DNA from: Candidatus Poriferihabitaceae bacterium
Lineage (GTDB): Bacteria > Pseudomonadota > Gammaproteobacteria > Arenicellales > Poriferihabitantaceae
NCBI GenBank assembly: GCA_965223465.1
Contig: OZ245025.1
Span: 2,253,900 to 2,317,899 of the forward strand
DNA: 64,000 nt
Reading direction: 5' to 3'
Shown here one piece after another: positions 14,022-33,629 of the stretch; position 1 is the first letter of the stretch; each line of letters starts with the position of its first letter. Under the pieces are notes generated by a model. It did no database searches and was not told where the DNA came from. It saw only the letters and a program-made list of their open reading frames with translations. The position numbers and the translations under genes are program-made.

Positions 14022-14098
14022 TGGTGGGCCCGGTAGGACTTGAACCTACGACCAATGGATTATGAGTCCACTGCTCTAACCAACTGAGCTACAGGCCC
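14022..14098 (-). tRNA. ileX: tRNA with CAU anticodon, most likely tRNA-Ile2 (lysidine type, ileX-like)
   Basis: Minus strand reads GGGCCTGTAGCTCAGTTGGTTAGAGCAGTGGACTCATAATCCATTGGTCGTAGGTTCAAGTCCTACCGGGCCCACCA, a full cloverleaf. The C4:G69 and C5:G68 pairs and the TTCAAGT T-loop resemble E. coli ileX rather than elongator Met. It sits just downstream of rpoD, as ileX does in E. coli. Confidence 0.8.
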
Positions 14099-25134: not shown

Positions 25135-25320
25135 ATTTGTCTTCAAAAGTTTGATTGATAAAGCGTTACCCGCCTGTGCCGTGGCTAATCTGGACCTTGA
25201 ACCTGGAGGTTCAAGTGGGAGCGCCGGCATTGGTTTGGGCTTTCCGCTGACAAACAGTAAGGTACTTTTGCCACGGACATGCTCACCCCCTCCGCAATCA
25301 CTGCTCCCGAGATATGCATT
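25135..25320 (-). ncRNA. ssrS: Probable 6S RNA (ssrS); ends approximate
   Basis: The minus strand contains GGUGAGCAUG and, downstream, CACUUGAACCUCCAGGUUCAAGG. These parallel the E. coli 6S elements GGUGAGCAUG and CACCUUGAACCAAGGGUUCAAGG as I recall them. Long-range pairings are present (UGAUUG/CAAUCA, CCGUGGC/GCCACGG). It lies immediately upstream of ygfA on the same strand, which is the conserved ssrS-ygfA arrangement. Confidence 0.55.
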
Positions 25321-25447
25321 AGGTTCTAAGGGATATAGATTCGCTCACGCACACCGCAGGTAACGTCACGCAATTGTAGCAAATAAAAGGTCTATTCGGC
25401 TAAATAGCGCAAAATTTTGTTCACAACCAAGTGGTTTTGCTAAACTT

Positions 25448-31293: not shown

Positions 31294-32589
31294 CTACTCG
31301 CTTGTCATAAACTCTTCGTAAGATTTTTTCACATTTTTAAGCTTGGCTGTGCTGATCAAGTGATCAATAACCTGCTCTTCTATCACCACACTGGCGATTT
31401 GATTGCGCTGCTGCTCATCGTTCATCACGTACTGTTTATATTTGTCCGGCTCGGCATAGCTCCCGGCGAGCTCGTCAACGCGCTTTTCGATTAGCTTTTC
31501 ATCAGGTTTCAGTTTTTCTTCTTCTACCACCGCGTTGACCAGTAAACCCAGCTTAACGCGCTTTTCAGAAGGCTCCTGATAATTCTCGCGCTTGATCATA
31601 TCCTTACTCGGAATACCTTGTTGCTCCAGCTGGCGGGTAACCTCCGCTACCGCTCGATTAATTTCCTCTTCTACGGGTGCCTTGGGAATCGGAAAGTCAT
31701 ATTTATCCGCAATTTTGGACAGCACCTGGTCGCGCAGTGCGTTGCGCTGTTTCTGCTTTAATTCACGATCCAGCCCTTCACGCACTTCTTCACGCATGGC
31801 CTTGATACCGCCCTCAATCCCCATGGATTTGGCAAACGTATCATCTATTTTGGGTAAAGTTCCTTTTTCTATCTTCTTAACAATAACGGCGAATTCGGCG
31901 GTTTTACCGGCTACGTCTTTACCGTGATAATCTTTCGGAAATTTAAGCTTAAAGGTTTTTTCGTCACCTTTTTTAGCACCTTCTAGATTTTTCTCAAACT
32001 CTGGCATGAAACGACCTTCGCCCAACACCAGCTCCGCATCTTTACCTTCACCGCCCGCGAAAGCCTCGCCTTTTATCGTACCGGTAAAATCAACGGTAAG
32101 CTTATCACCTTGTTTGGCCGCTTTATCCGTTTCGGTGTATTCGGTTTGGCGTTTCTGAATGCTGTCAATGGTACGATCAATATCTGCTTCGGTCACATCA
32201 ACCTCAATGGCCTCAATCGTTTCACCTTCCAGGGTAGGTGGATCGATCTCTGGGTAAACTTCGATATCCACATCGAAAACGAAATCCTTGCCCCGCTCCA
32301 TTTGGGTCGGCACGATATTGAGCAAGCTCGCTGGCATGATTTTTTCTTGCTGCAACGCTTTGGGATAGTACTCATTAATAAGTTCGTCCATAGCTTCTTT
32401 AAGTGCAGAACCACCAAACTGCTTTTCGAGCATTTTTTGCGGGATTTTACCCTTGCGAAACCCAGGTAGCTTTGCGTTCTTGGCATAGCGCGCGAGCTTT
32501 TTATTGACCGCCTTATCAAATACTTTTGCTGCGACTGATATGGTGACTTTACGTGCGATACCTTCTTGCTTCTCGATTGAAACTTCCAT
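31294..32589 (-). CDS. tig: Trigger factor
   Basis: I trimmed the ORF-track start (32700) to the Met at 32589 (MEVSIEKQEGIARKVTISV). The upstream extension overlaps a tRNA-Leu gene. FRKGKIPQKMLEKQFG is the ribosome-binding signature. Confidence 0.93.
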   Translation of the reverse strand: MEVSIEKQEGIARKVTISVAAKVFDKAVNKKLARYAKNAKLPGFRKGKIPQKMLEKQFGGSALKEAMDELINEYYPKALQQEKIMPASLLNIVPTQMERGKDFVFDVDIEVYPEIDPPTLEGETIEAIEVDVTEADIDRTIDSIQKRQTEYTETDKAAKQGDKLTVDFTGTIKGEAFAGGEGKDAELVLGEGRFMPEFEKNLEGAKKGDEKTFKLKFPKDYHGKDVAGKTAEFAVIVKKIEKGTLPKIDDTFAKSMGIEGGIKAMREEVREGLDRELKQKQRNALRDQVLSKIADKYDFPIPKAPVEEEINRAVAEVTRQLEQQGIPSKDMIKRENYQEPSEKRVKLGLLVNAVVEEEKLKPDEKLIEKRVDELAGSYAEPDKYKQYVMNDEQQRNQIASVVIEEQVIDHLISTAKLKNVKKSYEEFMTSE

Positions 32590-32670: not shown

Positions 32671-32756
<86 letters not shown>

Positions 32757-32895: not shown

Positions 32896-32972
32896 TGGGG
32901 TGAGCGATGGGGCTCGAACCCACGACCACCGGAATCACAATCCGGGGCTCTACCAACTGAGCTACGCTCACC
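32896..32972 (-). tRNA. tRNA-His (GUG anticodon) with the extra 5' G(-1)
   Basis: Minus strand reads GGTGAGCGTAGCTCAGTTGGTAGAGCCCCGGATTGTGATTCCGGTGGTCGTGGGTTCGAGCCCCATCGCTCACCCCA. Confidence 0.92.
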
Positions 32973-33032: not shown

Positions 33033-33418
33033 TGGCGCGCCCGACAGGACTCGAACCTGTAACCTACGGCTTAGCTTACCCACCACGGCTTTCGCCGCCA
33101 AGATGATAGGCTATTCGCGCTACACACCCTGTTTGGGGTCTGGACTATATCTTCACCATTTCAGGTGGGACACGTATAGTCTCTACGGATCCCGTTTATT
33201 CGATACCTACCGCCACAGTGCTTCGCCCGCGACCCTTCGGTATCTTGCCGGTTTCCTCGGTATTGCCATAAGTGTACCACTATCATGCACTTGAAGGTTT
33301 CACCGATACAGTGTCCTGCACTGATCAAGTTTTGTTTCCCCGATCAGGCTCCTGTTAGAAATCAACTGCTCGATTTCATGTCAAAGGCCGTTGCTCTATC
33401 CAGTTGAGCTACGGGCGC
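33033..33418 (-). tRNA. tRNA-Arg (UCU anticodon) gene split by a group I intron between anticodon-loop positions 34 and 35
   Basis: The 5' exon is 33418-33384 (GCGCCCGTAGCTCAACTGGATAGAGCAACGGCCTT). The 3' exon is 33074-33033 (CTAAGCCGTAGGTTACAGGTTCGAGTCCTGTCGGGCGCGCCA). Joined, they give a perfect 77-nt cloverleaf with anticodon loop CUUCUAA. Confidence 0.85.
33075..33383 (-). ncRNA. Group I intron (IC3-like tRNA-intron type), ~309 nt, no internal ORF
   Basis: Core pairings are readable on the minus strand: P3 GGACAC/GTGTCC, P4 GTATC/GATAC, P6 GGGTC/GATCC, P7 AGACTATA/TATAGTC, P8 CACC-TGAAAT-GGTG, P2 CTGATC/GATCAG, and a GAAA-capped CGGC/GCCG hairpin. The upstream exon ends in U, the intron ends in G, and a GAGCC guide sequence is present. 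Confidence 0.8.
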
Positions 33419-33470: not shown

Positions 33471-33547
<77 letters not shown>

Positions 33548-33600: not shown

Positions 33601-33629
33601 AATATACTGACTCATATCCTAAAGGTCAA
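33601..33629 (-). promoter_or_regulatory. Candidate sigma-70 promoter of the Pro-Arg-His-Leu tRNA operon, with a GC-rich discriminator
   Basis: Minus strand reads TTGACC, a 17-nt spacer, TATATT, then CGCCCACCC. This lies ~45 nt upstream of the tRNA-Pro 5' end. Confidence 0.5.

Follow-up and report, generated by a model that had tools for sequence, protein, structure and literature searches.

A group I intron of class Arg.3Ug in the anticodon loop of a tRNA-Arg(UCU) gene within a Pro-Arg-His-Leu operon

The split gene and its operon

The locus was analysed within a 64-kb window, by which the whole stretch of DNA studied is meant. Between 33900 and 32500 the minus strand carries, in this order, tRNA-Pro(UGG), a split tRNA-Arg gene, tRNA-His(GUG), tRNA-Leu(UAG) and then tig (table 1), and the gene order read in the window is the Pro-Arg-His-Leu operon upstream of tig-clpP-clpX that a first-pass annotation of the same DNA had described. 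The exons of the split gene, 35 nt and 42 nt long and with an encoded CCA included in the second, join into a 77-nt product that ARAGORN recognizes as a flawless tRNA-Arg(tct) with stems of 7, 4, 5 and 5 bp; the sequences quoted in the first-pass annotation lie on the minus strand where it had placed them. The 309-nt insert divides the anticodon loop as CUU/CUAA, between U34 and C35. Only this boundary yields the 7-nt loop CUUCUAA, with the exon ending in U34 and the insert in G, and the insertion point proposed earlier is the same. The spliced tRNA shares 85.7% identity over its full length with the E. coli tRNA-Arg adjoining fimZ and intD, which is the argU locus, to which it had been described as very close.

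ARAGORN in default mode and Rfam at the gathering threshold both detected the three uninterrupted tRNA genes, and neither reported anything between tRNA-Pro and tRNA-His. When introns were allowed, ARAGORN miscalled the precursor: it was labelled 'tRNA-Stop(tta)' and given an intron of 290 nt at the wrong position. AGA accounts for 3.6 of every 1000 codons and is present in 20 of the window's 29 long ORFs; a UCU-reading tRNA is therefore needed. Elsewhere in the window, both on the minus strand, lie a 6S/SsrS RNA gene (25163-25365; RF00013, 71.1 bits) and a solitary tRNA-Met(CAU) gene (14022-14098; 76.3 bits).

Table 1. Features of the operon and of the intron. Positions are those of the window; percentages of paired cells and compensatory changes refer to alignment A1 (see text).
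Feature	Position	Strand	Remarks
Sigma-70-like promoter candidate, TTGACC-17-TATATT	33601..33629	-	10/12 consensus matches; ~54 nt upstream of tRNA-Pro; consensus match only
tRNA-Pro(UGG), first operon gene	33471..33547	-	68.1 bits
5' exon of tRNA-Arg(UCU): acceptor 5' strand, D arm, anticodon stem 5' strand, C32 U33 U34	33384..33418	-	U34 (33384) = U-1 of 5' splice site
Group I intron, class Arg.3Ug, no ORF, 309 nt	33075..33383	-	RF00028, covariation P2-P9, model R1
P1, CUUU / GGAG	33386-33383 / 33352-33349	-	C32-U33-U34-U(+1) with guide; U34.G wobble at 5' splice site
Putative internal guide GGAG, intron nt 32-35	33349..33352	-	112/115 family introns among the matches listed; sequence-level basis
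P1 extension hairpin, GAAAUCGA / UUGAUUUC, in P1 loop	33358..33377	-	MFE fold; variable in relatives, 63% paired
P2, CUGAUC / GAUCAG	33347-33342 / 33326-33321	-	Compensatory 5/6 pairs; 92% paired
P3, GGACAC / GUGUCC	33316-33311 / 33173-33168	-	Compensatory 5/6 pairs; 94% paired
P4, UCGGUG / UACCGA	33306-33301 / 33262-33257	-	99.6% paired; two covarying pairs, UA/AU 48:29, GC/UA 47:32
P5, CC / GG	33297-33296 / 33267-33266	-	P4-P5-P5a domain 33257..33306
P5a, AAGUG / CACUU	33292-33288 / 33274-33270	-	Misaligned in relatives
P6, GGA / UCC	33256-33254 / 33189-33187	-	P6+P6a: compensatory 5/6 pairs, 96% paired
P6a, CCG / CGG, with variable extension	33251-33249 / 33194-33192	-	P6 domain 33187..33256
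P7, GACUAUA / UAUAGUC	33181-33175 / 33149-33143	-	Pseudoknot; 2 compensatory pairs, 87% paired; presumed guanosine-binding helix; encloses P3 3' strand and P8
P8, CACC / GGUG	33167-33164 / 33157-33154	-	100% paired; AU/GC 49:28
P9, ACCC / GGGU	33139-33136 / 33081-33078	-	94% paired; P9 region 33075..33139
P9a, AGGGUG / CAUCUU	33130-33125 / 33105-33100	-	Compensatory 6/6 pairs
P9b, GCGGC-GAAA-GCCGU, GAAA-tetraloop hairpin	33098-33085	-	2 compensatory pairs; followed by UAAG, ending in omega-G
Omega-G	33075	-	115/115 family introns among the matches listed
3' exon of tRNA-Arg(UCU): C35 U36 A37 A38, anticodon stem 3' strand, variable loop, T arm, acceptor 3' strand, encoded CCA	33033..33074	-	
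tRNA-His(GUG)	32896..32971	-	ARAGORN, Rfam
tRNA-Leu(UAG)	32671..32755	-	ARAGORN, Rfam
tig (trigger factor), then clpP and clpX downstream	31294..32589	-	58-69% identity to syntenic gene in L106, L026, L070

Identity, conserved structure and relatives of the intron

In a local Rfam scan the insert was aligned to the full RF00028 (Intron_gpI) model (positions 1-253) with 24.4 bits and E=4e-4, a significant match for a region of this size that nevertheless stays below the gathering threshold of 50 bits. The sub-threshold score is a property of the model, because 15 of 16 homologous Arg(UCU) introns of other species tested likewise missed 50 bits, the exception (L032) scoring 50.2. None of the Rfam group I seeds is bacterial, and a cut-off of 18-20 bits has been used instead (Williams 2020, bioRxiv 10.1101/2020.01.27.920355). 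For the 3' catalytic domain a covariance model, R1, was built from 71 other species with the window excluded and the structure picked by RNAalifold. Against the 64-kb window it gave a single site at 33189-33069 on the minus strand (100.1 bits, E=1.8e-22), the next match reaching 14 bits. Such a result lies far outside chance expectation and settles that the insert is a member of the Arg(UCU) intron family. The first-pass annotation had called a group I intron and had named an RF00028 search as the check on it; the search returned the full-length, sub-threshold match given above, and the call is upheld by this match, the family model and the covariation described below.

Relatives were collected with a scan pattern consisting of the terminal GAAA hairpin, the final G and a tRNA-Arg(NCU) 3' exon, one genome being taken per species. 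At least 119 loci matched the pattern. The 5' exon was located in 114 of 118 matches, and all 114 were tRNA-Arg(UCU) genes split exactly at CUU/CUAA by introns of 201-932 nt, from at least 114 other species. Among the matches listed, these genes occur in Gammaproteobacteria, Bacteroidota, Bacillota, Alphaproteobacteria and Chloroflexota, and at least 100 of the introns match that of the window by BLAST. U-1 and omega-G are present in every family intron listed (115/115) and the guide GGAG in all except three of them, with a pyrimidine at +1 in 110 of 112 listed, as expected from its pairing with the first G of GGAG. In the window the U at 33384, the terminal G at 33075 and the guide were likewise as annotated earlier, when the guide had been placed about 30 nt into the intron.

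For covariation analysis, the hand-built P1-P9 structure of the window intron was projected on an alignment (A1) of 79 distinct family introns of at most 420 nt. Paired cells amounted to 89.1%, versus 36-41% when partners were slid by 1-3 columns, and compensatory changes on both sides were found in 45 of 69 pairs; the covariation score was 0.328 versus 0.05-0.09 in controls, a value reached in 0 of 500 shuffles. P2, P3, P4, P6/P6a, P7 (in its pseudoknot with P3), P8, P9, P9a and P9b are each supported individually. P5a, which is misaligned in relatives and 31% paired, was the sole element that failed to align. The columns of P1 are 99.3% paired with an invariant exon side; since tRNA function leaves that side no room to vary, no covariation test is possible for this helix. 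All 66 family-invariant columns are kept in the window intron.

Of the helices proposed at first pass, P2, P3, P7, P8 and the GAAA hairpin stand, their strings being present in the insert. The P4 (GTATC/GATAC) and P6 (GGGTC/GATCC) given there were rejected, since each has one of its strands in a P6 extension missing from many relatives; the strings fall in J3/4 and in this variable extension, and covariation backs UCGGUG/UACCGA as P4 and GGA/UCC, with P6a CCG/CGG, as P6. P1 of the window intron is short, with 4 bp of which two are G.U. An alternative P1 register from the MFE fold, GGC/GCC plus UUUG/CAGG, was judged less likely than CUUY/GGAG because the C found at +1 in 42 family members (among the matches listed) pairs with the first G of GGAG and mostly not with the nucleotide upstream, and because published seeds too use CUU/GAG.

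The P7 region GUAGAGACUAUACG...GAAGAUAUAGUCC matches published bacterial tRNA-intron seeds, and the P5 domain contains CCUUCAAG...CUUAUGG, which resembles a GAAA-tetraloop receptor and, by analogy with the Azoarcus intron, may act as one. Subgroup IC3 is marked by the absence of P2.1, an L9 GAAA tetraloop with a receptor in P5, and short P5 and P6; with its GAAA hairpin, this receptor-like pair and its likeness to IC3 seeds, the window intron may belong to it. Two variants of the intron occupy the identical tRNA-Arg(UCU) site: an Azoarcus-like alphaproteobacterial one (J3/4 AAAUU, P6 GCC-AAG), represented in A1 by L013, L032, L035, L047, L056, L063 and L096, versus that of the window (J3/4 UGUA, P6 GGA-AAC, GAUAUAGUCC), which is more numerous and is found, among the matches listed, in Gammaproteobacteria, Bacteroidota and Bacillota. 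Within the variable P6 extension a GAAGG...GGUAG pair is conserved in many of the family (A1 columns ~317-323 and ~396-402; CCGAAGGGUCG...GGCGGUAGGUAUC in the window, ~33236-33205) and points to a peripheral module with a structure of its own.

About a third of the family, among the matches listed, carries a sense ORF of 136-149 aa in introns of ~600-700 nt; carriers include L003, L005, L006, L007, L019, L030, L036 and L060. The ORF belongs to PF11645 (PD-(D/E)XK endonuclease, E~1e-38) and weakly matches PDB 2OST, titled 'Putative endonuclease' in that entry, which we take to be I-Ssp6803I, the homing endonuclease of a tRNA-fMet intron. Judged by these matches, the ORF looks like a homing endonuclease of the I-Ssp6803I type, here within a tRNA-Arg intron. 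The window copy descends from this mobile family, of which roughly one member in three retains the PD-(D/E)XK enzyme; its own 309 nt contain no homing endonuclease ORF, and no internal ORF had been noted at first pass either.

Two further occurrences were recorded. Four IMG/VR 'viral' contigs of 83-281 kb (L240, L241, L244 and L245) contain a tRNA-Arg(UCU) gene that is interrupted at the same site by an intron of 205 nt and lies inside a cluster of tRNA genes (Met, Asn, Glu, Leu, Gln, Thr); the cluster could be the tRNA array of a large phage or a mis-binned host region. In Sporosarcina soli (L023), a relative from the Bacillota, an intact tRNA-Arg(tct) gene (2487-2562, oriented coordinates) lies directly upstream of the split copy, and intron-plus and intron-minus alleles therefore coexist tandemly in one genome.

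The arrangement Pro(UGG), split Arg, His, (Lys), Leu(UAG) is found in about 64 of 115 loci among the matches listed, with tig downstream in 36. The closest relatives of the window intron among the matches listed are those of an Arenicellales MAG (L106) and of L026 and L070, and the same three have the most similar Tig (58-69%); intron similarity thus tracks host similarity. The most similar ClpP proteins listed (80-86%) are from L106 and L070, and the gene upstream in the window is shared with L106 and L026. These similarities place the host of the window as an Arenicellales-like gammaproteobacterium, a lineage in which the intron looks vertically inherited. Intron-less genes with identical anticodon and T arms were found on at least 120 metagenome contigs, and most of those listed occupy the same Pro-Arg-His-(Lys-Leu)-tig-clpP operon in more distant Gammaproteobacteria, with Tig ~40% identical. 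As the intron-less gene sits in the same operon slot, the gene that the intron interrupts is the orthologous one, and across the class the intron is present in some members and absent from others.

Proposed splicing, alternative readings and significance

The observed anatomy, homology, conserved structure and conserved context of the split gene are read as those of a functional tRNA-Arg(UCU) gene with an ORF-less 309-nt group I intron of class Arg.3Ug between U34 and C35, a reading to which we give a probability of roughly 0.9. Group I introns are removed by guanosine-initiated, two-step self-splicing. If the window intron is active and follows this established chemistry, the Pro-Arg-His-Leu operon would be transcribed from a promoter upstream of tRNA-Pro, probably the candidate in table 1, and GGAG would pair with C32-U33-U34 and the intron U+1 as P1, so that the U34.G wobble coincides with the 5' splice site. 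The P3-P9 core, including the P3/P7 pseudoknot, would then fold, and the GAAA tetraloop of L9b would probably dock in the receptor-like P5 (CCUUCAAG/CUUAUGG), as in the Azoarcus intron. Exogenous guanosine bound in P7 would attack after U34; omega-G would replace it in the site, and the freed 3'-OH of U34 would attack after G33075, joining CUU to CUAA. The outcome would be the mature loop CUUCUAA in a tRNA reading AGA and AGG.

The two exons are without a flaw and the intron keeps every core position and helix that is invariant in the family, which argues against the insert being a decayed, non-splicing relic that has left a pseudogene, with AGA read by an uninterrupted tRNA-Arg(UCU) elsewhere in the genome. 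The compensatory substitutions across the family reflect ongoing selection for the fold, and in the operon the split gene stands at the orthologous position of the intron-less gene of more distant Gammaproteobacteria. A relic would be in keeping with the weak P1, with a homing endonuclease lost or never present in the window intron, and with the second copies that exist in some genomes, as the intact gene of S. soli illustrates; on balance it is considered improbable, at about one chance in twenty. The same low weight is given to a genuine group I intron that in vivo relies on a host protein (a chaperone or tRNA-binding factor) and does not self-splice efficiently. Many group I introns need protein facilitators, P1 is short and rich in G.U pairs, and there are large peripheral insertions in both P1 and P6; against this, the related tRNA introns of Azoarcus and Anabaena self-splice efficiently in vitro, and the tetraloop and receptor-like elements that stabilize such small introns are present. 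Chance insertion of some other element into the anticodon loop (a MITE, an IS remnant or an archaeal-type, protein-spliced intron), for which the silence of Rfam at the gathering threshold and of default ARAGORN could be cited, is refuted for practical purposes by the full-length RF00028 alignment, the 100-bit R1 match, the covarying P3/P7 pseudoknot core, the U-1 and omega-G boundaries, exact in all 115 introns among the matches listed, and an insert with neither terminal inverted repeats nor a transposase.

With the locus read as a functional split gene, it can be proposed, tentatively and at odds well below even, that no other gene supplies a UCU-anticodon tRNA to this organism and to its Arenicellales-like relatives, which would tie AGA decoding to ribozyme self-splicing. 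If this were true, translation of every AGA codon would hang on the ribozyme, vertical descent within the Pro-Arg-His-Leu-tig operon would have preserved this dependence throughout a large clade of Gammaproteobacteria, and rare-codon decoding could be coupled to GTP and Mg2+ status. The main value of the locus is for annotation. The split gene is missed by default tRNA finders and by the curated Rfam threshold, and many genomes of Gammaproteobacteria, Bacteroidota and Bacillota will therefore appear to be without an AGA-decoding tRNA although they carry one split by an intron; split tRNA-Arg(UCU) genes are probably widely unannotated (16 family loci; window 33125-33369). The family, with endonuclease-bearing and endonuclease-free members in at least 114 species and with presence and absence at an orthologous operon site, is a convenient natural dataset for studying how group I introns are gained, lost and domesticated. 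Neither a new mechanism nor a new type of host is revealed.

Comparison with known tRNA introns

The four classical settings of bacterial tRNA introns (Leu.3Ug, Arg.5Ug, fMet.2Ug and Ile2.5Ug) have been expanded to 21, among them Arg.3Ug, for which the seed Rba190.Arg.3Ug starts CUUC...GGAG (Williams 2020, bioRxiv 10.1101/2020.01.27.920355). No report of a bacterial Arg(UCU) intron beyond that work was found in the literature searched. The first-pass annotation had called the Arg(UCU) host unusual; this claim was based on a host list from before 2020 and is unsupported, the class being listed in 2020 and the identical split being present in at least 114 other species. Global identities of 79-86% (aligned columns) to the published seeds were inflated by free gaps and were dropped as evidence.

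Arg.3Ug introns share with that of the window the type of tRNA, insertion after loop position 3 (CUU/...g/), U-1, omega-G and P1 as CUU(Y)/GGAG, together with the core strings GUAGAGACUA..ACG and GAAG..AUAGUCCAG and a gcGAAAgc hairpin near the 3' end. The Rba190 seed is of the alphaproteobacterial, Azoarcus-like variant (J3/4 AAAUU, P6 GCC-AAG), as are L013, L032, L035 and L047, whereas the window intron is of the other variant and has extra P1, P5a, P6 and P9a extensions.

The classical IC3 tRNA introns, of which the Azoarcus tRNA-Ile(CAU) intron (Ile2.5Ug) and those of Anabaena/cyanobacterial tRNA-Leu(UAA), tRNA-fMet and Agrobacterium tRNA-Arg(CCU) were compared, resemble the window intron in being small and in having P2, a P3-P9 core, a terminal GAAA hairpin, a receptor-like motif in P5 and the P7/J6-7 sequence GUAGAGACUA. 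They differ in host tRNA and in length, the window intron having 309 nt versus about 200-250 nt through its peripheral insertions. Its insertion position, after U34, is that of the tRNA-Leu(UAA) intron, whereas the Ile and Arg(CCU) introns are inserted after loop position 5 and not 3. The I-Ssp6803I of the Synechocystis tRNA-fMet intron is of the same Pfam family (PF11645) as the ORFs in about a third of the Arg(UCU) family among the matches listed; the window intron differs from that intron in having no ORF and in its host tRNA and insertion site. Set beside these systems, the window intron is a real, well conserved and ordinary member of a described class.
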